Below, piece by piece: positions 7,798 through 31,316 of a DNA stretch of 64,000 nucleotides; position 1 is the stretch's first letter; every line of letters starts with the position of its first letter. Both the position numbers and the translations under genes were made by a program. The DNA is from Calditrichaceae bacterium (lineage in GTDB: Bacteria > Calditrichota > Calditrichia > Calditrichales > JBFXGD01). The notes under the pieces were generated by a model. It was not told where the DNA came from. It worked only from the letters and a program-made list of their open reading frames with translations, and did not search any database. The stretch is from NCBI GenBank assembly GCA_050173015.1, contig JBFXLE010000013.1:1-64000 (forward strand). Direction: 5' to 3'.

Positions 7798-8895
7798 ATG
7801 CACAAAACATTTTCTCTTGAAGCATTGATGGCCTTGTATTCGATTCCCTCAATCGGTCCGGCCAAAATGCGAAAATTGATTTCTATTTTTGATTCGCCGC
7901 AGGCGGTACTGGATGCAAGCGCCCGTCAATTGATGAATGTGGAAGGCATCGATCACAAAACCGCCGAGAAAATTAAAAGCGGACCGGATGAAAAATTTGT
8001 TCGTGAGCAGATGGAGCTTATAAAATCTCACGAAGTTAAAATTTTGACATACTGGGATAAACAATATCCAGAAAGACTTAAAAAAATTTATGATCCCCCC
8101 GCGTTTTTATTTGTCAAAGGAAATATAGATTGTCTCAACAACGCGGGAATCGGGGTTGTGGGATCGCGTGTACCCAGCACTTACGGTAAAATAATTACTG
8201 AACAGTTTACCCGTGAACTCGTGCAGAACGATTTTACAATCATTAGCGGATTTGCCCGGGGTGTCGATACCATCGCGCATAAAACCACGGTAAAAAACAA
8301 TGGAGTTACAATCGCTGTGCTTGGAAACGGGGTTGATTTGGTATATCCCTCGGAGAATGTACAGCTCCGTTCAGAAATTTTAAGCAAGGGCGCGGTTATA
8401 AGTGAGTATCCGATGAAAACGAATCCTGATTCCACAAATTTTCCAAAAAGAAACCGGATCATCAGCGGATTGAGCTATGGAGTATTAATCACAGAAGCAG
8501 GGGCTAAAAGCGGAGCGCTTATTACCGCATTTTACGCTCTTGATCAGAATCGTGAAGTTTTTTCTGTTCCCGGTCCCGTAAATTCAGGGAAAAGCGCCGG
8601 TACAAATCGACTAATAAAAGAGGGCGCCAAACTTGTGCAGGGCGTTCAGGATATACTTGTTGAACTTCCCGGGCAGATAAACCTGACAGGCAAAATAAAA
8701 GCTTCGGTTCCTCCACCGGATCTGAACGGATCATCTAAAGTTGTATATGATTTATTGAGCAGCGAACCACTGCATATTGATCAAATCGCGATTAAGGCTG
8801 ATCTTACAACCGCGGAAACTTTGGGAGTTCTGCTCAGCCTTGAGCTGATGAATCTGATCCGGCAAATGGCGGGCAAAATGTTTGTTAGATTATAA
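7798..8895 (+). CDS. dprA: DNA-processing protein DprA
   Basis: HhH N-terminus, VVGSR, ISGFARGVD, FPKRNRIISGLS, SGALITA, C-terminal winged helix. Confidence 0.96.
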   Translation: MHKTFSLEALMALYSIPSIGPAKMRKLISIFDSPQAVLDASARQLMNVEGIDHKTAEKIKSGPDEKFVREQMELIKSHEVKILTYWDKQYPERLKKIYDPPAFLFVKGNIDCLNNAGIGVVGSRVPSTYGKIITEQFTRELVQNDFTIISGFARGVDTIAHKTTVKNNGVTIAVLGNGVDLVYPSENVQLRSEILSKGAVISEYPMKTNPDSTNFPKRNRIISGLSYGVLITEAGAKSGALITAFYALDQNREVFSVPGPVNSGKSAGTNRLIKEGAKLVQGVQDILVELPGQINLTGKIKASVPPPDLNGSSKVVYDLLSSEPLHIDQIAIKADLTTAETLGVLLSLELMNLIRQMAGKMFVRL

Positions 8896-8900
8896 TGATG

Positions 8901-8933
8901 AAAAAAAATGGCAGGTGTAAATTCCTGCCATTT
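8901..8933 (-). terminator. Intrinsic terminator between convergent genes
   Basis: Stem aaatggcagg/cctgccattt; the A8 tract gives a U-tail on the minus strand. Confidence 0.7.
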
Positions 8934-8967
8934 CTATCCTGTATTAGAATAATACTCAAAATATAGA

Positions 8968-10131
8968 TTAACGCTTGAAGAAATCGTTGACTACCGTTTC
9001 AAGCTCTTTCTCTTTTAATCCCGATAGTTCACCAATATAAAGATGTCCGTCAGCCGGAAATTTATCTTCATCTTTGGTCGCGATCACTACTTTTTTGATA
9101 AATTCCTGCACCCGCTTTATGTCGGTATGATAAAAACTTACCGCGCTTTCACCGATTTTTAAATCTTTGATCTCTAAATCAAGCTGTGATGATTCCAGTT
9201 TACAAATCCAGTTTTTATCATATGTGGTAGTATCAAGTCTGTCAAGATCATCAAGCAGCGCTTTGTTAATCTTTTCCACTTTCCCGGATACAGGAGCATT
9301 GAACGGGATGGAATGTGTACCCTGCCGGATACTGAAAAGATTTTGTCCTTTTTTGATTTCCATGCCCAGATTGGGAAGTTCAATGGAATCAATCTTGCCG
9401 ATCAATTTTTTTGCAAAATCATCAATGCCCACATTCACTTTTCCGTCCTGGTCTATTCCCGCCCAGCAGTGGCCTTCTGATATGAAAACACCACCGGGGA
9501 TGGAGAATTCCACAGATGCCGGAATCTGAGTGTCTGTAAGATGAGTTATGTTGACCTGCGGAACCAGCTGACGATGGATACGCTCCTGTCTTTTGAACAG
9601 TGATTTTTTGATCATCGCGAGTAATTCATCTTCAGTAAAGGGTTTCTGAACATAATCCAATGCGCCGAATTTCATGGTCTCAACGGCCGTTTCCACGGAC
9701 GCGTAGCCGGTAATAATGATCACATCAATATCAGGCCGCAAATGTTTTACGCTTTTGCATACATCTACACCGTCCATTTCGGGCATTTTAAGATCGACAA
9801 ATACAAAATCGTAATGGTGTTTTTGTATTAATCCTAATGCCTCTTGTCCCGATTGAACCGTATCGACACAATATCCGTCAAGGACTAGAATTTTTCTGAA
9901 GCTGTCAAGAATTACCGCCTCATCATCGACGGCAAGAATTTTAGCTTTAGGATTATCAACTTCAACGCGTTTAAGGCTTTTAGCCTCATGAGTGAAATCA
10001 AGATTCAGGCTTACTTTTAGCGCTTCCTCGCGTTCACTTAAAATTCTTTTTGTGTTCACTTTTTTGATGATCATGCGAATGACGATATCTGCAATCACAA
10101 AAAGAATGACTGCTAATACTAAAAATAGCAT
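8968..10131 (-). CDS. Membrane-anchored response regulator: TM-REC-GcvH-like domain (no lipoyl Lys)
   Basis: Hydrophobic aa 1-22; REC motifs VDDE, D113 (FVDLKMP), TGY, KPF; C-terminal HCWAG..VGIDDFA..IELP..APVSGKV..IN..NWI resembles glycine cleavage H protein. Confidence 0.85.
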   Translation of the reverse strand: MLFLVLAVILFVIADIVIRMIIKKVNTKRILSEREEALKVSLNLDFTHEAKSLKRVEVDNPKAKILAVDDEAVILDSFRKILVLDGYCVDTVQSGQEALGLIQKHHYDFVFVDLKMPEMDGVDVCKSVKHLRPDIDVIIITGYASVETAVETMKFGALDYVQKPFTEDELLAMIKKSLFKRQERIHRQLVPQVNITHLTDTQIPASVEFSIPGGVFISEGHCWAGIDQDGKVNVGIDDFAKKLIGKIDSIELPNLGMEIKKGQNLFSIRQGTHSIPFNAPVSGKVEKINKALLDDLDRLDTTTYDKNWICKLESSQLDLEIKDLKIGESAVSFYHTDIKRVQEFIKKVVIATKDEDKFPADGHLYIGELSGLKEKELETVVNDFFKR

Positions 10132-10202
10132 TTTGTGGCTCCTTGGATAAGATTACATTTATAATCACATTCTAAGTTTTATTAATTTTTATTGTTCTCC
10201 TG

Positions 10203-11009
10203 TTAAATCCTGTCAGAGCTGCAGGGTGTTAAATGCTTTAATTCGTACTCAAGATCAGAAGGAATGATACGATAAAACCACCCTTTAAAATATGGATCCT
10301 TTTCGATAATCTGTTTATCTTTTAACAAGTGATCATTTATTTCTATGATTCTGCCCGTCATCGGCGCGAGAATATTGTGCACAATGCTATCAGAAGTGAC
10401 AAGTTGGGCGCATGCATTGCCCTGAACAATTTCCTCATCCATGTTTGCGAGTTCTATATGGTCGATGCTGTCAACCGTTCTCAAAAGCAAATCAGTTATG
10501 CCCGTTAATACAGAACCGTCGTGTTCAATGTACAACCAGCTTCCATAGCCAAGACGGAAATATTTTGCTGGACAAGGGACATAGATAATCGATGAATCAT
10601 TTTTTATTAAATTTGCTGATTTTAATGATTTATTTATTTCAGCATATTTTAAACCCCTGAAAACAGAACTCAACAGTTCATCTACCGTAAACGGTTTTGG
10701 CAGAAAATCTATCGCGCCCGTATATAAGGATTTTACGGCGTTCTCTACTGTGGAATACCCGGTAGTCATTATCACCGGAGAATCCAGATTCTGAGGTATA
10801 ATCTCATCAAGAAACATAAATCCATCCATCTCGGGAAGCATAATATCACAGATAATCAGCCGATACTGATTTTTTGCTATTTTATTCAATCCTTCAGTCG
10901 CGTCAAGTGAAGAATCAACACTAAATCCTTCAGTGCTGCATAGCTTGATTACGGAATCAATAATCACCTGTTCATCATCAATAATAAGTATGTCATAATC
11001 TTTGCTCAT
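10203..11009 (-). CDS. Soluble response regulator: REC-GcvH-like domain (no lipoyl Lys)
   Basis: REC motifs IDDE, D55 (CDIMLP), TGY, KPF; C-terminal SW..GITD..IEL..APMTGRIIEIN..DPYFKGWFYRI is GcvH-like. Confidence 0.85.
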   Translation of the reverse strand: MSKDYDILIIDDEQVIIDSVIKLCSTEGFSVDSSLDATEGLNKIAKNQYRLIICDIMLPEMDGFMFLDEIIPQNLDSPVIMTTGYSTVENAVKSLYTGAIDFLPKPFTVDELLSSVFRGLKYAEINKSLKSANLIKNDSSIIYVPCPAKYFRLGYGSWLYIEHDGSVLTGITDLLLRTVDSIDHIELANMDEEIVQGNACAQLVTSDSIVHNILAPMTGRIIEINDHLLKDKQIIEKDPYFKGWFYRIIPSDLEYELKHLTPCSSDRI

Positions 11010-11023
11010 ATGGATTCCTGATT

Positions 11024-12895
11024 TTAACTAGCCGACCTGGTGGCCGGGATTCTTATCGTAAAGGTTGTGCCTTCCCCAATATTGCTGTCAACGGTAATGG
11101 TACCGTTATGATTGTCAATAATCCCCCAGATAACCGCAAGACCTAACCCGGTTCCCCGTTGCCCCTTTGTTGAATAAAAAGGTTCAAATATGCGGTAGAG
11201 ATTTTCTTTGGGTATGCCGCAACCGGAGTCAGAGATTTTAACTTCTATAAATTCTTTTTTCCCTTCCAGTTCAATCATCTTCCAGTTTTGCCAGCCGCAA
11301 TCTCTGTTTGTGCAGCCTACAAACTCACCCTGTGTCGGGATTTCAAATGAATATACAGAAGATGCGCATTTTGGGCACTTGTTGTTTTTTTCGATCAGCG
11401 AAACATCGCAATGCGGGCACATTAACTGAAGTGTCTTGTTCTTGCTATATTCGATACCGAAATAATGTCTCGATTTTCCATAGATAGGGTCAAGATTTAC
11501 AATACCGGAGCTGCCGTTTGAAAGAGCTTTTAATTTTATCGAAGGTAAACCGTCTATTTTAATTTCATTGTCGATAAGGCTGTGTCCCTTCGGGCACGCG
11601 GCTCGCTTGATTTGCATATAACCTTTAGGCGGCACATACAGTAGCGTTGTTGACACATTTATGTTTCCACCGTTCTTCCCGATGGCGTCATTCGCATTGA
11701 CTACCAGATTTATAAATACCTGTTCAATCTGATTGGCGTCGATGGTTACTCTTGGCAATTTTAAATCAAGATTTTTAACAATTTTAACATTGTTAATGGC
11801 AAGCTGGTTCTCTACCACACCGATCGCGTGATTAAGTATTTCATTGATGTTTGCATTATTCTTTTTCGGAACCGATTGTCTGGCAAAATCAAGCAGTCCT
11901 TTTACAATTTCCCTGCTTCTTTTTGTTTCTCTGACAATGACTTCCAAATCTGACTGCAAATCGGAATTACCCTTGGTTCTCTTTAACAAAAAACTGCTGT
12001 AAGTTAAGATTCCGGTCAACGGATTGTTAATCTCATGCGCGACACCGGCGGCGAGACGGCCAAGCGATGCCAGTTTATCCGACTGGAATAACTGCATTCT
12101 GGCTTCAGATAATTTTTGAGTCATATTGTTAAATGAACGGGCAAGCATTCCCAATTCATCATTGCTGTGTTCTTTGATCGTGTAGCTCAGGTTTCCGGCA
12201 GCGACATTTTTTGTAGCCTGAAGAAGCGTATTCACCGGCTTGTCCACTAAACTTCTCACGAAGTACCATACCGTCCCACTCAATAGAATGATGGCAATGA
12301 TGGCGAACATAAGCATCTTGAATTTTGTTGATGCAATTTGATTATCAATTGCCTTGATGGAAATAGTGACATCAAGGACACCCAGCACTGTCCTTTCAGA
12401 TGGGTGCGCATGGCATTGGGCTTCCCAGCAGGATGGTTCATTATAAATCGGATTAATGATACCTAACACCCTTGAAGAATCGGGGGCTAATTTATAGACA
12501 CGCGTGCGCTTGTCAATCTCAAGTTTTTCCAGGGGTTTATTGGCCGCGTGGCAAGCATAGCATGCTTCGGTTTTTTTATCAACCATATGGCCGATGGCGG
12601 TGGTATCAGAAGAATAGATGATCTCACCTTCTTTATTAAAAACCCTGACTTCATTGATGCATGGTTGATTCCCGATGGTCTGTATAATGTTATGAATATG
12701 CGCGCGTTCGTTAAGAAGCATCCCGTATCTTGTGCTGTTCTTCACCGTTTCGCTTAACTGATTGACATGCCTCTCCACCTCATCAAAAAGAGCCTTGCTC
12801 TGAGATTGCACATTCAGATAGGCAAATACGAAGATGATGATAATGGTAGCCGTTCCCACAGCTGAAATTAATTTGAATCCTATTTTCTTGAACAT
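11024..12895 (-). CDS. Sensor histidine kinase with periplasmic heme-c motifs, HAMP, HisKA and HATPase with Cys-rich insertion
   Basis: Two TM helices flanking CYACH and CWEAQCH; HAMP (DELGMLARSFNNM); H-box AHEINNPL; N-box NLVVNANDA; DSGCGI, FEPFYSTK, GTGLGL. Confidence 0.92.
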   Translation of the reverse strand: MFKKIGFKLISAVGTATIIIIFVFAYLNVQSQSKALFDEVERHVNQLSETVKNSTRYGMLLNERAHIHNIIQTIGNQPCINEVRVFNKEGEIIYSSDTTAIGHMVDKKTEACYACHAANKPLEKLEIDKRTRVYKLAPDSSRVLGIINPIYNEPSCWEAQCHAHPSERTVLGVLDVTISIKAIDNQIASTKFKMLMFAIIAIILLSGTVWYFVRSLVDKPVNTLLQATKNVAAGNLSYTIKEHSNDELGMLARSFNNMTQKLSEARMQLFQSDKLASLGRLAAGVAHEINNPLTGILTYSSFLLKRTKGNSDLQSDLEVIVRETKRSREIVKGLLDFARQSVPKKNNANINEILNHAIGVVENQLAINNVKIVKNLDLKLPRVTIDANQIEQVFINLVVNANDAIGKNGGNINVSTTLLYVPPKGYMQIKRAACPKGHSLIDNEIKIDGLPSIKLKALSNGSSGIVNLDPIYGKSRHYFGIEYSKNKTLQLMCPHCDVSLIEKNNKCPKCASSVYSFEIPTQGEFVGCTNRDCGWQNWKMIELEGKKEFIEVKISDSGCGIPKENLYRIFEPFYSTKGQRGTGLGLAVIWGIIDNHNGTITVDSNIGEGTTFTIRIPATRSAS

Positions 12896-13059
12896 CTTAC
12901 TTTTCCAGGTGTCAATTTTTATTAACTATTAAGATTGTGGGCGGTATGCAGACAACAATATTCAAGGGATTACCCGCGCGACTAAGCAATGCATACCGTC
13001 AAAACCAATCTTACTATCATTACTGATATTACGAAACAATTCTATTCCTGTTCAATAGT

Positions 13060-14223
13060 TTAAAGTTTTGATTTTATCAAGCTACCGGGTTTTTTCGCCG
13101 GATACTTATAATCATCATGACAGTTGTCACATGTTGGTTTTTTGTTAAAATTGGAATCAATATGACATGATTCACAATCCATGGAACCATGGTTTTCATC
13201 AAGTACTAATCCGGTTACACGATGCTTAAAGGATTCAGGATTCCAGTTTTTGTGACAGCTTGTGCATGTAGGTTTCAAACTTGAAAAGATTTTACTCTCG
13301 CCATGACAAGTCTGACATTTTAAGGATGCGTGATAGCTTTTGAGAGGCCATTTTGCAGTAACCGAATGGTCAAACGGACCTTTTTGCTCACTGCTGTGAC
13401 ATTTGGTACAAGCATCATCAGCGTGACAGGCGAAACAGCTCTCATGTTTTTCATCAGCTGATTTCTTAACAGTTATCGGCTTGGCCGGGGCGGCCTGCTC
13501 TTTATAAGTTGATTTTGAAAGGTCGTGACAGCGACTGCAGCTCTCATTTGTATGACAATCCACACATTTAAATCCAAACTTTCCTGAATGTTCATTATGA
13601 TAGAAAGTTACATATTTACCCTCTTTGGCCGCGGTTTCGTACACCACTTTATCCGGTTCTTTAATTTTTGGATGTTTTGAGCCAATAATATCGCTTTTAT
13701 CCATAATCTTTGCATCGGGAACTTCCGTCCCTTTTAAAGCATGGCATACATTGCAGTCCGTTGTATGGCTCCATTCGCGGTGACAGCTTAAACACTGCCG
13801 GTGGTAAGCGCCTTTTAGACCCGGTTTACTAAGATCATCTCTCATGGGCGCTACTTCGTGGCATTCCTTACACGCGGCGATTCTACCGGGAGGGTTATGA
13901 TGATGACATGACACACAGCTTCCGGACATTTGTCCCATTTCAGCATGCAACTTATGCGGGAAAACGGTCGGTTCGTAAATATTAGATAAAATATCAATGT
14001 TTAATGTGTCGGGTCCCTCTTCAGGGGTATGGTGAATTGTTACCACATTCCGTTTGAATTCAGGACAGCATGTTAAACATGGGTCCGCTTCCGTCGGGTT
14101 ATCACAGCTGTGACAGGATTTGCAATCCAGGGCAAGTTTAGAATGATGCTCTTTGCTCACAGTCTGAGCAAACAACGGGGTAATGATGAGTAAAAAGCCA
14201 ATAATCAGATTTAATTTTTTCAT
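13060..14223 (-). CDS. Periplasmic multiheme cytochrome c (13 CxxCH; cytochrome c3-like domains)
   Basis: Sec signal; CKSCH, CVSCH, CKECH, CLSCH, CNVCH, CVDCH, CSRCH, CFACH, CTKCH, CQTCH, CTSCH, CESCH, CDNCH; FxHxxH distal-ligand motifs; LKGAYHRQC. Confidence 0.93.
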   Translation of the reverse strand: MKKLNLIIGFLLIITPLFAQTVSKEHHSKLALDCKSCHSCDNPTEADPCLTCCPEFKRNVVTIHHTPEEGPDTLNIDILSNIYEPTVFPHKLHAEMGQMSGSCVSCHHHNPPGRIAACKECHEVAPMRDDLSKPGLKGAYHRQCLSCHREWSHTTDCNVCHALKGTEVPDAKIMDKSDIIGSKHPKIKEPDKVVYETAAKEGKYVTFYHNEHSGKFGFKCVDCHTNESCSRCHDLSKSTYKEQAAPAKPITVKKSADEKHESCFACHADDACTKCHSSEQKGPFDHSVTAKWPLKSYHASLKCQTCHGESKIFSSLKPTCTSCHKNWNPESFKHRVTGLVLDENHGSMDCESCHIDSNFNKKPTCDNCHDDYKYPAKKPGSLIKSKL

Positions 14224-15464
14224 TTTGAAACCCCTCGAATAGCGAATTTTGTTTTTGGCTTATATCCTTTAACCGGTTGGCTTATCACAGGGAAAATCAA
14301 AACAAGTGCGCGGTACAATAATACTTCGAGAGCGATAAAGCCTACCGTGACGGAAATTTCACCGATTGACGGGAAATATGAATTCATTGCGTAAGGGGGT
14401 GTGTAGGCAATGAGAAATGTATTAATTCTGTTTAACAAAACTCCGAATATCACTAAAAGTGAGGCGGTAAACAACCAGTTTGGCGACTTCAGAGCTTTAT
14501 TCGAGAGGAAAATCCTTAGAGGGATGATCACGCCAAACAGCATTTCTATAATAAACATGATGCTTTCGAGATTGAAATCCAATAAATAGACATATGTTTC
14601 GCGTATAACCATGTCCCCTATTTTAAAGGCAAGGTAAATTCCCAACAATGGGCCTATTATCCGTCCTAAATTGGAGAGTACATGCATTTCCCTTTTTAAG
14701 CCGAAGGATTTTGAAGCGATCATGGACTCAAGGACGACCATTGGAAAACCCACTGAGATCGCTGAAAGTAAAAACAAAAGCGGCGCGATTGGAGTTTGCC
14801 AAAGAGGGTGAATCTTAGAACCTGCTAAGATCATCAGTGTTCCGAGTGATGACTGATGCAGACAGGATAGCACAACACCGGCAATCAAAAAGATAAACAT
14901 AAACGGATTCAGAATTTTATCAAGAAATTTTAACAGGGATTCCAAAGGTTTTACAAGGCCTGCCAGAAACCCGTTTAAATGCACCTGTCCTTTGAATCGT
15001 TCAATGACAACGGGGATAAATTCAATGTATAAAACAGTAAGATATGTCATGACGCATATACCTACTTCGAACAGCGCTGAATTCCCGTTCCACATATACA
15101 TAACGTGATAAATAGAATAATATCGTCCAAGGTCAATAAAAACTCCAAGAGCGACAAAGGTATATCCCAACATGGCTGTTAGCAGAGCGGGGCGCACTAT
15201 CACGTGATAGTCTCCTCTGTGGAAAACATGTCCGAGGGCGGCAGTCGTAAAACCTCCCGCGGCAAGGGCTACCCCCGCGGCCACATCAATGCCGATCCAG
15301 ATACCCCATGGGTGCTGATTATCCAGATTGGTCACAGCGCCGAGTCCAAAGACGAATCTCATCAACGCGAATATCAGGCCGTTTACAGCTAGTATCGTCA
15401 AGAAAATTACACCGGGTGTAAAAAATTTTTTTTCAATACGAGCAGGTTTAATCATTTCTTCCAT
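14220..15464 (-). CDS. NrfD/HybB/HmcC-family quinone-interacting membrane subunit
   Basis: PWGIWIGIDV..GVALAAGGF, DLGRY, SALFEV, LHQSSLG; about 10 TM helices. Confidence 0.92.
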   Translation of the reverse strand: MEEMIKPARIEKKFFTPGVIFLTILAVNGLIFALMRFVFGLGAVTNLDNQHPWGIWIGIDVAAGVALAAGGFTTAALGHVFHRGDYHVIVRPALLTAMLGYTFVALGVFIDLGRYYSIYHVMYMWNGNSALFEVGICVMTYLTVLYIEFIPVVIERFKGQVHLNGFLAGLVKPLESLLKFLDKILNPFMFIFLIAGVVLSCLHQSSLGTLMILAGSKIHPLWQTPIAPLLFLLSAISVGFPMVVLESMIASKSFGLKREMHVLSNLGRIIGPLLGIYLAFKIGDMVIRETYVYLLDFNLESIMFIIEMLFGVIIPLRIFLSNKALKSPNWLFTASLLVIFGVLLNRINTFLIAYTPPYAMNSYFPSIGEISVTVGFIALEVLLYRALVLIFPVISQPVKGYKPKTKFAIRGVSK

Positions 15465-15473
15465 TATCGCCTC

Positions 15474-16367
15474 CTACTCAACTTCTTCTTTGTTCTTATT
15501 GATCCACATGATACCGCCAAGAAGCGCATAAAGAGATACCGGTGGGATAAAATATTTAAATATTGCGTGCTGAATGGCTTCCGAAACACCTGGCGCCGGG
15601 TTTTCAGCTAATTTTGGGAAATCCAGATCAGAGAAATCTGTCGATGAAAGATACAACCATGATGTTCCGCCGACTTCTTTCTCACCGTAAATATGGTCAA
15701 AATATTTATCGGGATTTTTACTGATTCTTTCACGGGCGATTTTTAGCAGATCGGAACGTTTGCCAAAGGTCAGAGCTTCCACCGGACACATTTCTACACA
15801 TGCCGGAAGCAAACCTTCTTTTGTTCTTTCAAAACAAAAATCACATTTTTGTACCTGTGGTGTGAGGGCATTTTTGTACTCATAGGATGGAATCTGAAAA
15901 GGACAGGCGACCATACAGTAACGGCAGCCGATACACTTGTTGACATCATAGATCACTGATCCGTTCTCTTCTTTGGAAAACGCGCCTACAATACATGCGG
16001 ACACGCAAGCCGGGTGATCGCAGTGCATGCACTGAACCTTGACGTTTATGGGATATTTGCCCCCGTTATTGTTGTCATATTCATTAACAACAGTGTGACC
16101 GTCAATATCCGGCCTTCTTAAATTTTTGAAAACTGACCGGTCATCATAAGATTCAATGGATCCGGTAGGGAAATCATGCGCCTTTTTGCAGGCATACTCA
16201 CATTTGCGGCAACCAATGCAGACAGTTGTATCAACCAGGACACCGTTCCTGTCTTCCAGCAACACATTCTTTGGGGCGGCCTTCGCCTGTTTGGCTCCCA
16301 CACCGGTTAAACCGGCACCGACCAATCCGGCGGTTTTGAAAAAATCGCGTCGGCTCTGTTTACCCAT
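15474..16367 (-). CDS. Tat-exported 4x[4Fe-4S] protein, HybA/HmcB family
   Basis: SRRDFFK Tat signal; CIGCRKCEYAC, CMHCDHPACVSAC, CIGCRYCMVACP, CDFC..PACVEMCP; C-terminal TM anchor. Confidence 0.93.
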   Translation of the reverse strand: MGKQSRRDFFKTAGLVGAGLTGVGAKQAKAAPKNVLLEDRNGVLVDTTVCIGCRKCEYACKKAHDFPTGSIESYDDRSVFKNLRRPDIDGHTVVNEYDNNNGGKYPINVKVQCMHCDHPACVSACIVGAFSKEENGSVIYDVNKCIGCRYCMVACPFQIPSYEYKNALTPQVQKCDFCFERTKEGLLPACVEMCPVEALTFGKRSDLLKIARERISKNPDKYFDHIYGEKEVGGTSWLYLSSTDFSDLDFPKLAENPAPGVSEAIQHAIFKYFIPPVSLYALLGGIMWINKNKEEVE

Positions 16368-16483
16368 TTTTAACTCCTTGTATTCAATTCCAAAATAATA
16401 ATTTCACAAGATTGGCACAACATATAAATATATCTTCAAAAATCCTTAATATTATTTAAATCCGATTTGCTATGTGTGTTGAC

Positions 16484-16499
16484 AGCAAAAGTTGTGCCT
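16484..16499 (-). promoter_or_regulatory. Sigma-54 (-24/-12) promoter of the FeS/NrfD/cytochrome operon
   Basis: Minus strand AGGCACAACTTTTGCT = GG-N10-GC, matching TGGCAC-N5-TTGC, about 117 bp upstream of the ATG. Confidence 0.72.
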
Positions 16500-17143
16500 T
16501 TATTTTGAAAAGGGCGTTTTTACAAGATATGATCTGTTAAATGCAGGGCTGAGCCGATTCTTGCGGGAGCAACATTTTAATTTTTTCAGGTTGGAAATAA
16601 TAATTTCCGGATTAGTGAATAAAGTGTTTCAAAAAGTGTTTCATACGAGATATTTAAAATAGTATGTTTCAAAACCTGTTAAGCAATGTTAACATGATAA
16701 AAATAAATGAATTAGCATTCAATTATGAAACATTTTGTTCCTATATTCCTGATTCCATGTGTTTTTTTGCATATGATTACCGGATAAATATATATAAAAA
16801 TCAAAATTAATTATAAACGAATGTCTGTTTCTAATGTATGCGAACCGAACCGATATGTCGTGTTGCTCAGCGGAGTTGAAATCCAATTTGAGTATATTTG
16901 TACCAAATAAAATAATTTCAAATACATTTTTCCTATTTTTAGTAAAAACTTCTTTATTTCACAGATAAAACCCTTCGTTAAATACAATACTGCAGATGTT
17001 AAAGTTAAGAAATTGATTGATTTAACCACGGTTGCTTATGGATTTGCTGAAATGAAATTAACTGAATAAAATTAATTGAATGAATGGTATAATATTTGTA
17101 ACTTTAAAATTCAATAACATTGCAAGCGGAGGACTAATAAAGA

Positions 17144-18022
17144 ATGTATAAAATTGTAGAAGCCGGCTTTCTTGCGGAAAATATTAAACGATTTGTGATT
17201 CAAGCGCCGAGAATTGCCAGTAAACGAAAAGCGGGTCAGTTTGTCATTATAAGAATTGACGATCATGGTGAAAGAATCCCTCTAACCATCGCGGATTCTG
17301 ATAAAGAAAAGGGAACGATTACGATTATTGTCCAGGGAATTGGAAAAACGACAACCGCGCTGAATATGAAAGAAGCGGGAGATCAGATACTGGATGTGGT
17401 CGGGCCTTTGGGACATGAATCTGAAATTGAAAAATTTGGTACTGTCGTCAGTATTGGCGGTGGTGTGGGAACGGCGATTGCATTTCCGACAGCCGTTGCC
17501 CTAAAAGATGCCGGAAATTATGTAATTACCATTAACGGCGCCAGAAACAAAGATATGGTTATCCTGGAAGACGAGATGCGGTCGGTCAGTGATGAAGCAT
17601 ATGTTACTACAGATGACGGATCCTATGGTTTCCACGGTTTTGTAACCCAGAAACTGCAGGAATTGCTCGATTCCGGCAAAAAGATTGATTTTGTTCTGGC
17701 CATCGGTCCGATCCCGATGATGAAAGCGGTCGCTGAGGTCACACGTCCTTTTAATATTAAAACAGTTGTCAGTTTAAATCCCATTATGGTTGATGGTACC
17801 GGAATGTGCGGTGGGTGCCGGGTTGTCGTGGGTAATGAGTCTAAGTTTGCCTGTGTTGACGGTCCGGAATTTGACGCGCATCTTGTTGATTTCAAAAATC
17901 TTTCCGACCGAAACAAGATGTACGCAAAATACGAGAACTTATCATTGCAAAAATTTAAGCATGAATGCAATCTGGATAAACAGGCTAAGGCGCATAAGGA
18001 ACTAGAGCAGGTTGAGAGCTGA
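17144..18022 (+). CDS. nfnA: NfnA (NfnS), small subunit of electron-bifurcating transhydrogenase
   Basis: GQFVI, ERIPLTI, GGGVG, DGTGMCGGCR and CVDGPEF [2Fe-2S] motif; adjacent to an NfnB-like gene. Confidence 0.9.
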   Translation: MYKIVEAGFLAENIKRFVIQAPRIASKRKAGQFVIIRIDDHGERIPLTIADSDKEKGTITIIVQGIGKTTTALNMKEAGDQILDVVGPLGHESEIEKFGTVVSIGGGVGTAIAFPTAVALKDAGNYVITINGARNKDMVILEDEMRSVSDEAYVTTDDGSYGFHGFVTQKLQELLDSGKKIDFVLAIGPIPMMKAVAEVTRPFNIKTVVSLNPIMVDGTGMCGGCRVVVGNESKFACVDGPEFDAHLVDFKNLSDRNKMYAKYENLSLQKFKHECNLDKQAKAHKELEQVES

Positions 18023-18087
18023 TCCAGGTATTTGGAAATCTAATAATATTCATAAGAATTAATTCTAAATAAAAAAATGGTGAACGA

Positions 18088-19515
18088 ATGCAGAAGTTGA
18101 CAGCAAAAGAACGTATGAAAATTGCCCGGCATCCGATGGTCGAACAGGATCATGTTGAGCGGGGACATAATTTTAAAGAAGTTAACCTGGGATACACTAC
18201 CCAGATGGCACAGGAAGAGGCGATGAGATGTTTACAGTGCGCTAAACCGACATGTGTACAGGGGTGTCCGGTTAATATTCAAATAAAGGATTTTGTTACT
18301 TTGATCGCGGAAGGTGATTTTATCGGCGCCGTGCATAAAATCAAAGAAGATAATGCACTCCCCGCGATTTGCGGGCGTGTTTGTCCGCAGGAAGAGCAGT
18401 GTGAACAGGTTTGTGTAGTGGCGAAGAGAGGCGAGCCTGTCGCGATTGGAAATCTGGAACGGTTCGTGGCTGATTTTGAAAGGACAAGCGGAAAAGTCGA
18501 ACTGCCGCGGGTAGGAGCCCCGACAGGGAAAAAAGTAGCTATTGTGGGAAGCGGTCCGGCGGGATTAAGCTGCGCTAAAGATATGATTCAGATGGGACAT
18601 AAAGTGACCGTATTTGAAGCGCTCCATGAGTTGGGCGGGGTACTGGTGTATGGGATTCCGGAATTCCGTCTGCCGAAAGATATCGTGCGGCAGGAGATCG
18701 AAGGTCTGCAAAAAATGGGTGTTGAATTTGTGACCGATGCCGTAATCGGAAGAACTACCACGATTGATGAACTGATGGAAGAAGAAGGATACGACTCCGT
18801 GTTTGTCGGCGTAGGCGCGGGACTTCCCTGGTTTCTCGGAATTCCGGGCGAAAATCTGATCGGTGTTTATTCAGCAAATGAATTTCTTACACGTGTAAAT
18901 TTAATGAAGGCATACGATTTCCCAAATTACGATTCGCCGATTTTAGACTGCAAAGATAAAAATATTGCTGTTTTCGGTGGCGGCAACACCGCGATGGATT
19001 CAGTACGTACCGCGCTGAGGCTCGGAGCGAAAAACGCGTATATTGTCTATCGCCGTTCCGACAAAGAAATGCCCGCGCGCGCTGAGGAAGTAAAACATGC
19101 CAAGGAAGAAGGCATTCAGTTTTTGATGCTGACTAATCCCCTTGAATTTGTCGGAGACGAAAACGGCTGGTTAAATTCCATGAGATGCATCAAAATGGAA
19201 TTAGGCGAACCTGATGCATCCGGTCGGCGACGTCCGGTTCCTATTGATGATTCGGAGTTTGTCATGGATATAGATATGGCCGTGATTGCCATCGGCAACG
19301 GATCAAATCCCCTTATCAAACAAACTTCACCGGAAATCGAGTTTACTAAACGCGGTACGATCGCCGTTGACAGTGAGACCATGAAAACTTCAAAAAAAGG
19401 TGTTTTTGCCGGCGGGGATATTGTAACAGGCGGGGCAACGGTCATTCTGGCGATGGGGGCCGGTCGAAAAGCCGCAGCCGCCATGAATGATTTTATGAAT
19501 ACCGGTAACTGGTAG
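18088..19515 (+). CDS. nfnB: NfnB (NfnL), GltD-like large subunit (often annotated as homotetrameric gltA)
   Basis: RCLQC..CVQGCP, CGRVCPQEEQCE, GSGPAGL, GGGNTAMD, YRR, GGDIVTG; no gltB nearby. Confidence 0.88.
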   Translation: MQKLTAKERMKIARHPMVEQDHVERGHNFKEVNLGYTTQMAQEEAMRCLQCAKPTCVQGCPVNIQIKDFVTLIAEGDFIGAVHKIKEDNALPAICGRVCPQEEQCEQVCVVAKRGEPVAIGNLERFVADFERTSGKVELPRVGAPTGKKVAIVGSGPAGLSCAKDMIQMGHKVTVFEALHELGGVLVYGIPEFRLPKDIVRQEIEGLQKMGVEFVTDAVIGRTTTIDELMEEEGYDSVFVGVGAGLPWFLGIPGENLIGVYSANEFLTRVNLMKAYDFPNYDSPILDCKDKNIAVFGGGNTAMDSVRTALRLGAKNAYIVYRRSDKEMPARAEEVKHAKEEGIQFLMLTNPLEFVGDENGWLNSMRCIKMELGEPDASGRRRPVPIDDSEFVMDIDMAVIAIGNGSNPLIKQTSPEIEFTKRGTIAVDSETMKTSKKGVFAGGDIVTGGATVILAMGAGRKAAAAMNDFMNTGNW

Positions 19516-27348: not shown

Positions 27349-27888
27349 ATGAGCATTGAAATGCGCATCAATGAGAGCGTTCTTCATTTGGAGAAAGGCG
27401 ATATTACTGATTTGTCAGTAGACGCCATAGTCAATGCCGCAAACCAGCACCTGATCCTCGGTGGAGGCGTTGCGGGGGCAATTTCTGCAAAAGGCGGACC
27501 ATCCATCCAGGAGGAATGTAACCGAATCGGCGGTACCTATGTCGGAGGGGCTGTAATAACCGACGGGGGAAATCTTTCGGTTAAAAAGATTATTCATGCA
27601 GTCGGCCCCAAAATGGGTGAAGGCGAGGAAGATACCAAACTAAAAAACGCTACGATGAACAGCCTTATTCTTGCTGAAACCTATGGGCTTGGGAGTATCG
27701 CTTTTCCGGCGATCAGCACAGGCATATTCGGGTACCCGGTCGAACGGTGCGCGGAGATCATGCTTAGTACGACGATCGGTTTCCTGCAGAGACCGACCAA
27801 AATCAAAGATGTTTATTATTGTTTGTGGAGCGATGAAGATTATACGGTTTTTCAGTCAACGTTAGAGTCAAAAATGGAAAATTTGTGA
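27349..27888 (+). CDS. Macro domain protein (YmdB-like ADP-ribose hydrolase)
   Basis: GDIT, DAIVNAAN, GGGVAGAI, IHAVGP, AFPAISTGIFGYP. Confidence 0.93.
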   Translation: MSIEMRINESVLHLEKGDITDLSVDAIVNAANQHLILGGGVAGAISAKGGPSIQEECNRIGGTYVGGAVITDGGNLSVKKIIHAVGPKMGEGEEDTKLKNATMNSLILAETYGLGSIAFPAISTGIFGYPVERCAEIMLSTTIGFLQRPTKIKDVYYCLWSDEDYTVFQSTLESKMENL

Positions 27889-29801: not shown

Positions 29802-31316
29802 CTACATCACCATTTTTTCGTTAAATTCTTTGATCTGATTTCGTCCGTTTCGTTTTGCATAATACAGCGCGGTGTCCGATTGATTTATTAAACTCTTATA
29901 ATCAACAGAATCTTCCATCAACGATGCAACTCCTATGCTTACCGTAATATTTCCGTTCGGCTGAACTTCTTCGTGCTCAAATGCAGCGCTTTCGATTCTT
30001 TCCCTTAAACGTTCAGCGAGGACCGATGCTCCATCCCTGTCAACCGCCGGTAGAATCACCGCGAATTCTTCCCCTCCGTATCTGGCGACGATGTCATTTT
30101 CACGAACAGTTTCTTTAAGAATATGACCGAGTTTACGCAGAACCTCGTCGCCTGCCTGATGACCAAGCGTATCGTTGTAATTTTTAAAAAAATCAACATC
30201 CAGAATCAGTAGTGAAAGTCCCGTTTTGGTACGATTATGACGCACAACCTCTTCTTTTAATCTCAGTTCAAAATACCGGAAATTATGTAAATCAGTCATT
30301 CCGTCCGTATATGAAAGCTGTTCGACTTCGTTGTATAACGCCGCGTTTGTCACGGCTACCGATATCATATTGCTGAGAATGGAAATTTGCTGTAATTCTC
30401 TTTCTTCATAGTTTTGCTTTTTTACTCTGGGACCAAGACAGATAAGCCCTTCGAGCGAATTTTTAACGATGATGGGTGTAATGATCTCAATATGCAGGTT
30501 CAGCATCGTTTTTAAGGCGGATGAATTTTTTAGCTTGTGGCTCATTTCTTTCAGCATGACCGGATAACCGCGTGTTTCGAAGAATTTCTCCAGCGGGTCG
30601 CTTTTTTGAATTACGAGATCTTCGACATCTTTTTGAAAGAAACCTTTTGAATTAATAACTTCGAGTCTTCTGGTGGCCGGTTTTAACGCGTATAAAAACA
30701 ATGCGCTTTTGCAGGAAAACTGCCCGATAATAGTCAGCAGCGTCGAGTTGATCAATCTTTTCATTTCAAGAATCGAGTTGAGCTCCATGGAAATTTCAAA
30801 CAGGGTATGGAGTCCAAAAATATTTTTTCTTAATTCTCTGTTTTTCTCAATCAGGGTTTGATTGAGATTGTTGATTTGCCTGTTAGCGGAAGCAAGTTGA
30901 AGAGATTGACTAAGAAGCAGTTCATTCAGTTTTTTTAGTCGCAACGCCGAGTTGACACGCGCGATGAGTTCATCCAGATGAAAAGGTTTTACCAGATAAT
31001 CATCAGCGCCCGCATCCAAACCCTGCACAATGTCGCTCACCGTGTTCTTGGCGGTGATGATAATGATGGGAGTATAATTAGAACCCTGATCGATCTTTTT
31101 AATTTCTTTAATTACATCCAGCCCGGACATCCCAGGAAGCATAATATCCATAAGAACCAGGTCCGGGTCTTCATCCTTGAATTTTTGCAGACCCAGCTCA
31201 CCGTTTTCAGCTTCGATGGCCGTATAATTCTGAGATTTGAGATACTTTTTAAGTATCTTCATCATGTCCTGATGATCTTCGACGATCAGGATTTTCTTTT
31301 GGTCGGTAACTTCCAT
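29802..31316 (-). CDS. Response-regulator diguanylate cyclase (REC-coiled coil-GAF-GGDEF)
   Basis: REC (MDIMLP, KPF), GAF-like middle region, GGEEF active site with RxxD (REND) I-site. Confidence 0.92.
   Translation of the reverse strand: MEVTDQKKILIVEDHQDMMKILKKYLKSQNYTAIEAENGELGLQKFKDEDPDLVLMDIMLPGMSGLDVIKEIKKIDQGSNYTPIIIITAKNTVSDIVQGLDAGADDYLVKPFHLDELIARVNSALRLKKLNELLLSQSLQLASANRQINNLNQTLIEKNRELRKNIFGLHTLFEISMELNSILEMKRLINSTLLTIIGQFSCKSALFLYALKPATRRLEVINSKGFFQKDVEDLVIQKSDPLEKFFETRGYPVMLKEMSHKLKNSSALKTMLNLHIEIITPIIVKNSLEGLICLGPRVKKQNYEERELQQISILSNMISVAVTNAALYNEVEQLSYTDGMTDLHNFRYFELRLKEEVVRHNRTKTGLSLLILDVDFFKNYNDTLGHQAGDEVLRKLGHILKETVRENDIVARYGGEEFAVILPAVDRDGASVLAERLRERIESAAFEHEEVQPNGNITVSIGVASLMEDSVDYKSLINQSDTALYYAKRNGRNQIKEFNEKMVM

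Follow-up and report, generated by a model that had tools for sequence, protein, structure and literature searches.

A conserved gene cluster of Ignavibacteria and Calditrichia encoding a quinone-linked redox module, a heme-motif sensor kinase and two response regulators with GcvH-like domains

Introduction

The Desulfovibrio complexes NhcABCD and HmcABCDEF are built from the same three blocks, a multiheme cytochrome, a ferredoxin (HmcB or NhcB) and an NrfD-like membrane subunit (HmcC or NhcC), and NhcABCD is counted among the NrfD-type complexes in the accessible part of PMC8076601. A module of a tail-anchored ferredoxin, a HybB-like quinol oxidase and a c-type cytochrome is described, in the accessible portion of the report, as having no conserved flanking genes (10.1101/2023.11.02.564894). 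Here we describe a locus with these blocks in a Calditrichaceae bacterium. The window, by which we mean the whole analysed stretch of 64,000 nucleotides (assembly GCA_050173015.1, contig JBFXLE010000013.1, positions 1 to 64,000), carries six genes for an iron-sulfur (FeS) protein, an NrfD-like subunit, a 13-heme cytochrome, a heme-motif histidine kinase and two response regulators, RG1 and RG2, which combine a receiver (REC) domain with a domain like the H protein of the glycine cleavage system (GcvH).

To our knowledge, nearly all two-component systems that have been studied end in transcription, c-di-GMP turnover or the flagellar motor. The cluster presents a regulator family whose sole output is a GcvH fold unable to carry lipoate, and in one lineage this family is locked together in one operon with genes for quinone-linked electron transfer. 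Should that electron-transfer module be what the regulators act on, they would serve respiration as a brake or clutch under direct sensory control. The system would then also offer a handle on how NrfD-type proteins couple quinone chemistry to ion movement, which the accessible part of PMC8076601 treats as an open question.

Organization and conservation of the cluster

Domains were assigned with Pfam and NCBIfam profiles at their curated cut-offs. The six co-oriented open reading frames (ORFs) run on the minus strand from 16367 to 8968, with intergenic gaps of 9, -4, 164, 14 and 71 bp:

15474 to 16367, minus strand: gene 1, HybA/HmcB-like periplasmic protein with four [4Fe-4S] clusters, 297 aa (4Fe-4S dicluster models)
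14220 to 15464, minus strand: gene 2, HybB/NrfD-like quinone-interacting membrane subunit, 414 aa (NrfD profile, HybB identity)
13060 to 14223, minus strand: gene 3, secreted cytochrome c with 13 CXXCH motifs, 387 aa (class III cytochrome c models, motif count)
12896 to 13059, minus strand: spacer of 164 bp between the cytochrome and kinase genes, with a long hairpin and no T-run (folding)
11024 to 12895, minus strand: gene 4, sensor histidine kinase, 623 aa (transmembrane segment, periplasmic domain, transmembrane segment, HAMP, HisKA, split HATPase_c)
10203 to 11009, minus strand: gene 5, RG1, soluble response regulator, 268 aa (Response_reg and GCV_H)
8968 to 10131, minus strand: gene 6, RG2, membrane-anchored response regulator, 387 aa (transmembrane helix, Response_reg and GCV_H)
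about 8900 to 8939, minus strand: intrinsic terminator, hairpin and T-run, common to the cluster and the convergent dprA (folding)

An earlier note, made from the letters of this DNA, had described six co-oriented genes, from a HybA-like FeS protein to a membrane-anchored REC-GcvH-like protein, ending at one terminator, and the ORFs, domains and folding bear this out. The terminator hairpin after gene 6 has a folding energy of -21.9 kcal/mol (z -5.1), and none of 200 shuffled sequences was equally stable; a consensus terminator scan did not list a terminator at about 8900-8939.

To survey related genomes we used a profile of the gene 5 GcvH-like domain (six-row alignment A2), which gave 361 confirmed loci in species-representative genomes, and the best 80 of these were kept. 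The A2 profile retrieves close relatives only, and the 80 loci come from assemblies of the Ignavibacteria/Calditrichia type, some of them labelled Bacteroidetes and one Gemmatimonadales. The synteny count is thus confined to these loci, with the other 281 and the REC-GcvH-like proteins of other phyla standing outside it. All six genes were found in the same order and orientation in 57 of the 59 loci with enough flank. The signalling genes are therefore syntenic with the redox module, which supports the earlier interpretation, and the six-gene order is not chance. Both exceptions (L038 and L041) are without the cytochrome and have an extra gene-6-like copy upstream. The proteins of another Calditrichaceae assembly (L001) are 93-97% identical to those of the window.

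A cautious reader might take the juxtaposition as fortuitous, with the signalling genes forming an independent operon, and would point to the hairpin-bearing gap between the cytochrome and the kinase. This gap, previously given as 165 bp, measures 164 bp, and its hairpin (-37.9 kcal/mol, z -2.06) lacks a T-run. Median gaps across the related loci are 1.5, -1, 58.5, 3 and 55.5 bp; because the third of these, the cytochrome-kinase spacer, is 58.5 bp at the median and can shrink to -1, the gap of the window is not a conserved operon boundary. Several loci have these two genes directly adjoining or overlapping. Fortuitous juxtaposition is largely refuted by the conserved order, and we regard it as highly improbable. 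A scan of positions 8700-17300 against Rfam gave nothing meaningful, with a single snoRNA match at E 0.39.

The redox module

Gene 1 matches Fer4_11 and further 4Fe-4S dicluster models of Pfam, and has the features of a HybA/HmcB-type ferredoxin: four 4Fe-4S motifs (16 Cys), a twin-arginine (Tat) signal and a hydrophobic C-tail as C-terminal anchor. The Tat signal is read from the motif SRRDFFK, and the Pfam TAT_signal match is weak and under its cut-off (E 0.0018). The protein is 35% identical to E. coli HybA over its full length (E 4e-58). Its best NCBIfam matches fall under the equivalog cut-offs, with 341 bits against 420 for HmcB and 255.5 against 263 for HybA; the best NCBIfam matches of the module include both HmcB and HmcC.

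Gene 2 passes the NrfD profile PF03916 (73.2 bits against a cut-off of 25.8, E 3.7e-20) and shares 33% identity with HybB of E. coli (E 2e-65). It is not a HybB equivalog by NF008133 (Ni/Fe-hydrogenase cytochrome b subunit, HybB type), its best NCBIfam match, where it scores 363.7 bits against 450. The residues assigned to the quinone site and ion pathway of HybB in the accessible part of PMC8076601 are R89, Y99, D109, S129, E148, H184 and R329. All seven have counterparts in gene 2 (R91, Y101, D111, S129, E148, H203 and R346), which are invariant or nearly so among 47 family members.

Gene 3 encodes a signal peptide and exactly 13 CXXCH motifs, and matches the class III cytochrome c models of Pfam. 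Thirteen motifs were also counted in 59 of the 64 family cytochromes that are clear of contig edges. The closest solved relatives are the 16-heme Hmc and nine-heme cytochromes, with the similarity confined to residues 65-165. Genes 1-3 are thus a redox module of an ordinary known kind (Nhc/Hmc/Hyb-like). The direction of electron flow is not deducible from sequence: the module may oxidize quinol and pass electrons to periplasmic or extracellular acceptors, or may carry them from the cytochrome to quinone, as in Nhc and hydrogenase-2.

The sensor kinase

Two transmembrane segments of gene 4 (residues 4-31 and 186-217) enclose a periplasmic domain, and a second unusual region interrupts the ATPase domain:

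12341 to 12802, minus strand: kinase periplasmic sensor domain, with CYACH (12548-12562) and CWEAQCH(AH) (12410-12430)
11249 to 11659, minus strand: all-beta insert of about 135 aa, rich in Cys and His, within the kinase ATPase domain (alignment, model)

The heme motifs reported for this kinase are present, and C112, C115, H116, C156, C161, H162 and H164 of the sensor are identical in all 66 sequences aligned. The motifs are CYACH at residue 112 and CWEAQCH at 156, that is, one CXXCH and one CX4CH and not two CXXCH, and the same pair was found in all 65 full-length family kinases. Covalent attachment of c-type heme at these motifs would be expected from such a pattern. The sensor domain scored 18.4 bits against the Pfam cut-off of 27 for Mcp40H-20_sensor, which we take to comprise the periplasmic heme-c sensor domains of Geobacter chemoreceptors. 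In the catalytic part, the HisKA residue H287 is conserved in 100% of the 66 sequences, and the closest solved structure is ZraS (9jfj).

The insert is modelled confidently as an all-beta structure (predicted local distance difference test 89). Seven of its residues (C434, H438, C493, C496, C507, C510 and C528) are identical in all 66 kinases, and this Cys/His pattern suggests metal sites. We found no PDB fold match at E<=0.001 and no Pfam family for the insert. A word-based search gave 58 matches, confined to kinases with matching HAMP/HisKA/HATPase_c; most of the insert-bearing kinases are about 620 aa long, and the shorter entries are apparently fragments. We flag the insert as a new domain within a kinase ATPase fold.

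The two regulators

RG1 and RG2 are divided as follows (Pfam for RG1, Pfam and a structure model for RG2):

10662 to 10991, minus strand: RG1 receiver
10236 to 10541, minus strand: RG1 GcvH-like domain
10054 to 10131, minus strand: RG2 transmembrane helix
9607 to 9939, minus strand: RG2 receiver
9142 to 9477, minus strand: RG2 GcvH-like domain
8971 to 9141, minus strand: RG2 helical tail

Both receivers keep the acidic pocket, the phospho-Asp, the Thr and the Lys. D12, D55 and K105 of RG1 are invariant in 100 sequences, and D69, D70, D113, T141 and K163 of RG2 in 47. Together with the conserved-His HisKA and the HATPase_c of gene 4, these phosphorylation residues are what a functional two-component system would have, as far as sequence can tell. 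Pfam found no DNA-binding domain in either regulator, nor any domain besides Response_reg and GCV_H, in agreement with the proposal that they lack DNA-binding domains and with their intact receiver sites.

RG2 is modelled as a long N-terminal helix, a receiver, a disordered linker, the GcvH-like domain and a helical tail. The N-terminal transmembrane segment takes up residues 1-26, within which A7, F11, D15, I18 and R19 are invariant in 47 sequences; the conserved buried Asp suggests a specific intramembrane contact.

The H-protein-like fold proposed for these regulators is well reproduced. In the model, the GcvH-like domain of RG2 superimposes on E. coli H-protein (3a8k_E) with a template modelling score of 0.93 (target-normalised), a root-mean-square deviation of 1.4 A and 25% identity, and the domain resembles GcvH in sequence at E about 1e-12. 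What does not carry over is the chemistry. The position of the lipoyl Lys (hairpin ES-V/T-K) is occupied by Ser in RG1 and Thr in RG2, which rules out lipoylation at the canonical site. Among the nearest relatives, a Lys stands in the lipoyl column in 13 of 149 domain instances, eight of which are short stand-alone or DGC-fused GcvH forms without a receiver; short stand-alone representatives of GcvH length keep the Lys in the same alignment. Nearly all of the GcvH-like domains have a His three residues beyond the Lys position. The annotated ORFs of the window include no gcvT, gcvP or lipoate ligase gene.

Two side observations concern these proteins. RG1 has two Cys residues flanking its GcvH-like domain (VPCP and PCSSD; 10626-10559 and 10211-10203 of the window, residues about 129-151 and 263-268), which are invariant in closer relatives (alignment A2) and lost in distant ones (the 15-row domain alignment A1), and which form a possible disulfide or metal site. 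A Macro-domain gene lies directly downstream of the RG2 homologue in 36 of the 80 loci, on the cluster strand in 33 of them (e.g., L009:11700-12218); the window's own Macro-domain gene (27349-27888) is 18 kb from the cluster. This adjacency, which may be lineage synteny, recalls the pairing of GcvH-L with a macrodomain in Firmicutes.

The GcvH-like family and a second FeS/NrfD association

At E<=1e-3 a search with the GcvH-like domain alone matched 1833 cluster representatives, of which 146 remained at E<=1e-10. A receiver was present in 96 of the best 150 representatives, and the best 120 full-length matches were all REC + GCV_H; automatic names in the family include 'CheY-like chemotaxis protein/glycine cleavage system H lipoate-binding protein'. 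An Atlas search returned the family's own clusters alone, mostly from Ignavibacteriota. Other architectures among the relatives were a transmembrane segment with GCV_H, a signal-peptide form about 555 aa long, DGC + GCV_H, REC + GCV_H + Fer4 (P0177), and three GCV_H domains with an FAD oxidase, Fer4 and two CCG domains in an HdrD-like arrangement (P0150), where all three GcvH-like domains are without the Lys. The P0150 and P0177 fusions point to a wider adaptor role of the GcvH fold in Fe-S redox proteins, and we flag that GcvH-like domains without lipoate are more widely associated with proteins of the Fe-S, NrfD and HdrD-like kinds.

The same fusions, with CCG/HdrD-like and FAD modules, might be read as the mark of a carrier, in which the GcvH-like domain holds a covalent cofactor or substrate on its hairpin, like lipoylated GcvH, the LbpA of sHdr systems and GcvH-L, and takes part in redox or sulfur transfer. 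The true GcvH fold, the near-invariant His three residues past the Lys position and the Macro-domain gene after RG2 in 36 of 80 loci, with its likeness to the GcvH-L/macrodomain pair, would fit such a role. We nevertheless think it improbable, since the lipoyl Lys is absent from RG1, RG2 and most relatives and the window shows neither a lipoate ligase gene nor gcvT/gcvP.

The fold also occurs beside a second FeS/NrfD pair. A four-gene set adjoins the cluster in 23 of the 80 loci, divergent upstream in all except L032, with partial sets in four further loci (an example is L019:62-3430, minus strand). It encodes a transmembrane GcvH-like protein without a receiver (about 224 aa), an FeS protein (about 258 aa), an NrfD protein (about 392 aa) and a 242-aa protein. 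The FeS protein is HybA-like, with a twin-arginine motif in none of 26 sequences and a C-tail followed by basic residues; the NrfD protein is HybB-like, and the 242-aa protein starts with YKLCx6CxxC. All 27 ORFs taken as transmembrane GcvH-like scored higher to RG2 than to RG1 (although one of them is no true member but a truncated activator), and the Asp-bearing helix is common to the 11 true members listed. The 242-aa protein matched P0236, a GCV_H protein, by BLASTP (E 3e-8), and its counterpart in L063 matched both the domain profile (6e-19) and the 242-aa group (1e-16). FeS/NrfD pairs are thus accompanied by an anchored GcvH-like protein and probably also by a soluble one, and these may or may not carry receivers. 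As the REC-less paralogue stands beside the second pair, the GcvH-like fold is tied to such pairs apart from the kinase, and this second, kinase-free association favours the membrane complex as the target of the regulators.

This observation has to be set against the possibility that the target of the regulators is unlinked, for example a metabolic enzyme or a different membrane complex, and that they are encoded here because the kinase senses the state of the redox module. The many architectures of the relatives (transmembrane-only, signal-peptide, DGC-GCV_H and Fer4/CCG forms) would make the fold a versatile adaptor, as this explanation needs. It accounts poorly for a GcvH-like fold that adjoins FeS/NrfD genes twice and for the tethering of RG2 to the same membrane, and we consider it unlikely.

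In 11 loci (L066, L003, L016, L021, L024, L054, L073, L075, L076, L067 and L032) another kinase, about 530 aa long, stands beside the cluster; its sensor has the same CXXCH and CX4CH pair, and it is without the ATPase insert. This kinase is accompanied by a REC protein of about 450 aa, which in L066 (508-3457, minus strand), the one locus to which Pfam was applied here, is a full NtrC-type sigma-54 activator. In several loci the gene of the 242-aa protein precedes this kinase/REC pair.

Transcription signals and surroundings

Two features lie upstream of gene 1:

about 16485 to 16499, minus strand: sigma-54-type -24/-12 box, GGCACaacttTTGC / GGCACaacttTTGCT, 118 nt upstream of the first ATG (pattern scan)
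16624 to 16733, minus strand: cluster of TGAAACAY repeats, possible enhancer-binding-protein site (upstream activating sequence), 130-235 nt upstream of the -24 box

A sigma-54-type box does precede the cluster, as described earlier. It is the single match in the window, with 0.24 matches expected by chance per 64 kb and at least one match in 21 of 100 shuffles, and by itself it is a plausible promoter, not a proven one. Among 64 family members, only 19, the window included, have a box of canonical spacing, GGC[AT][CT]-N5-TTG[CT], in the 250 nt before gene 1; the background is 0.0075 per 250 nt. The other members comprise 22 with a TGGCAT..T.TT.T box, which has a poor -12 half, and 23 with neither. 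A stricter sigma-54 pattern matched 2 of 62 upstream regions, and a mis-spaced relaxed pattern 1 of 63.

Four of the window's eight TGAAACAY copies cluster upstream of the box. The same repeats occur in L001, and an inverted TGAAACA..TGTTTCA stands upstream of the box in L080; the arrangement would resemble an activator site. No sigma-54 activator gene was found in the 64-kb window or in the operon, and an NtrC-type activator adjoins the cluster in L066. Expression of the operon is probably set by a separate sigma-54 system. Under such separate control RG1 and RG2 could act outside transcription, or else they would be modulators of that system.

The latter option amounts to an indirect action on transcription, in which RG1 and RG2 modulate a sigma-54 activator or holoenzyme as anti-activator, co-activator or phosphate sink and so set operon expression. 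It draws on the receivers, which score best with AtoC, ZraR, NtrX and NtrC models, on the kinase, which scores best with AtoS/ZraS, on the sigma-54-type box in the window and in 19 of 64 relatives, and on the 11 loci where the heme-motif kinase of about 530 aa and the REC protein of about 450 aa stand beside the cluster, with the NtrC-type activator of L066 among them. The window has no activator gene, and neither the RG2 anchor with its invariant Asp nor the REC-less paralogue beside the second FeS/NrfD pair is explained in this way. We also know of no role of the GcvH fold with sigma-54. On balance an indirect role in transcription is doubtful.

The neighbours of the cluster are housekeeping genes: obg, dprA (7798-8895, plus strand, convergent with the cluster) and a divergent NfnAB-like pair. 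This last pair, of the NfnAB/sulfide-dehydrogenase type (17144-19515, plus strand; DHODB_Fe-S_bind, and Fer4_20 with Pyr_redox_2), is separated from the operon by an intergenic region of 776 bp. A REC-GGDEF response regulator elsewhere in the window (29802-31316, minus strand) is, as far as seen, unrelated to the cluster.

Proposed mechanism

We combined these lines of evidence into a model in which the cluster is a self-contained respiratory-control unit of Ignavibacteria/Calditrichia that exerts phosphorylation-dependent post-translational control of the FeS/NrfD complex. We put this forward as a tentative account, at a little under an even chance. The 13-heme periplasmic cytochrome would be wired, through the Tat-exported four-cluster ferredoxin, to the cofactor-less HybB/NrfD subunit, which would exchange electrons with menaquinone, probably coupled to proton movement. 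The kinase, with two covalent c-hemes, would report the redox or ligand state of the periplasm, perhaps of the cytochrome itself, and would phosphorylate soluble RG1 and RG2, the latter tethered by its conserved helix with a buried Asp. The lipoate-less GcvH folds would then serve as protein-docking modules on the FeS/NrfD complex, and docking would tune its electron flow or coupling post-translationally, while a sigma-54 activator with its gene at another site would govern operon transcription independently. In this account heme attachment, the sensed signal, the pairing of kinase with regulators and their target are all things that we infer, and the interpretation of the earlier note, which ran along similar lines, is partly supported overall.

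Several points weigh against this model. The FeS protein is periplasmic, and a cytoplasmic GcvH-like domain would reach only the N-side of NrfD and the tail of the FeS protein. The receivers and the kinase core are closest to partners of the NtrC family (ZraS/AtoS and AtoC/ZraR), which also fits a transcription-linked role. The synteny comes from the 80 closest of the 361 loci, which are related, and its conservation is partly shared ancestry. The fold link of the 242-aa group is also weak, with an hhalign probability of 34% against alignment A1 and no match with the A1 profile. A complex prediction for NrfD with RG2 scored 0.00 twice against a mark of 0.32, was made without controls, and weighs neither way on binding.

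A more specific version of the model makes RG2 (and RG1) a phosphorylation-controlled subunit of the FeS/NrfD complex. The Asp helix would sit in the HybB-like subunit and the GcvH-like domain would cap the proton half-channel on the N-side, such that the heme sensor would switch the coupling or direction of a quinone:cytochrome oxidoreductase within seconds and without transcription. We rate this version as unlikely. If it were correct, no earlier two-component output would be known to act directly as the gate of a respiratory complex, and the regulators would define a new and widespread class of 'GcvH-like adaptor' for Fe-S redox modules.

Comparison with known systems

Compared with Nhc and Hmc, the cluster described here has 13 hemes instead of 9 or 16, the order FeS-NrfD-cytochrome, other host phyla and scores far below the equivalog cut-offs. 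The HmcA model gave 44.6 bits against 400, and the cluster has no genes for HmcD, HmcE (cytochrome b) or HmcF (CCG); similarly, 9HemeCytC gave 26.5 bits against 640, and there is no fourth redox gene (NhcD) in the cluster. HybA and HybB of E. coli hydrogenase-2 have the Tat signal, the C-tail and the seven HybB residues in common with genes 1-2, but here there are no hydrogenase subunits and a cytochrome stands in their place. The module of ferredoxin, HybB-like quinol oxidase and cytochrome described in 10.1101/2023.11.02.564894 is of the same type, as far as the accessible portion of that report describes it, but the module described here has conserved neighbours, namely the kinase and two regulators.

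The rrf1 and rrf2 genes downstream of hmc in D. vulgaris are a partial parallel in the literature accessible to us, as regulators, one of them a receiver protein, that follow a cytochrome/FeS/NrfD operon. In the accessible part of 10.64898/2026.06.30.735679, Rrf1 is treated as CheY-like and as affecting hmc expression, and that part mentions no kinase or GcvH-like domain. The idea that Rrf1 is itself a REC-GcvH protein was dropped, since the literature, in the portion accessible, treats it as a CheY-like receiver (by description, not by sequence).

For the signalling genes, the heme-c sensors of Geobacter chemoreceptors likewise have a CXXCH in a periplasmic domain between two transmembrane segments, to which the kinase described here adds a CX4CH. 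GcvH, LbpA and GcvH-L have the same fold as RG1 and RG2, which differ in lacking the lipoyl Lys, in being fused to receivers and in having no glycine-cleavage or lipoylation genes nearby. The kinase core and receivers are most similar to ZraS/ZraR and AtoS/AtoC, but RG1 and RG2 are without the AAA+ and helix-turn-helix domains of those systems, and the kinase adds the heme sensor and the ATPase insert of about 135 aa.

We found no description of this architecture, of REC-GcvH regulators or of the kinase insert in the open-access literature of PMC and bioRxiv; subscription journals were outside this scope, and the result is provisional. The view that the system is undescribed thus holds for that literature, but not for the redox module, which is of a known kind. 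What appears to be new, on this provisional basis, is that a known redox module is coupled to two GcvH-fold regulators and to a heme kinase that bears a new insert.

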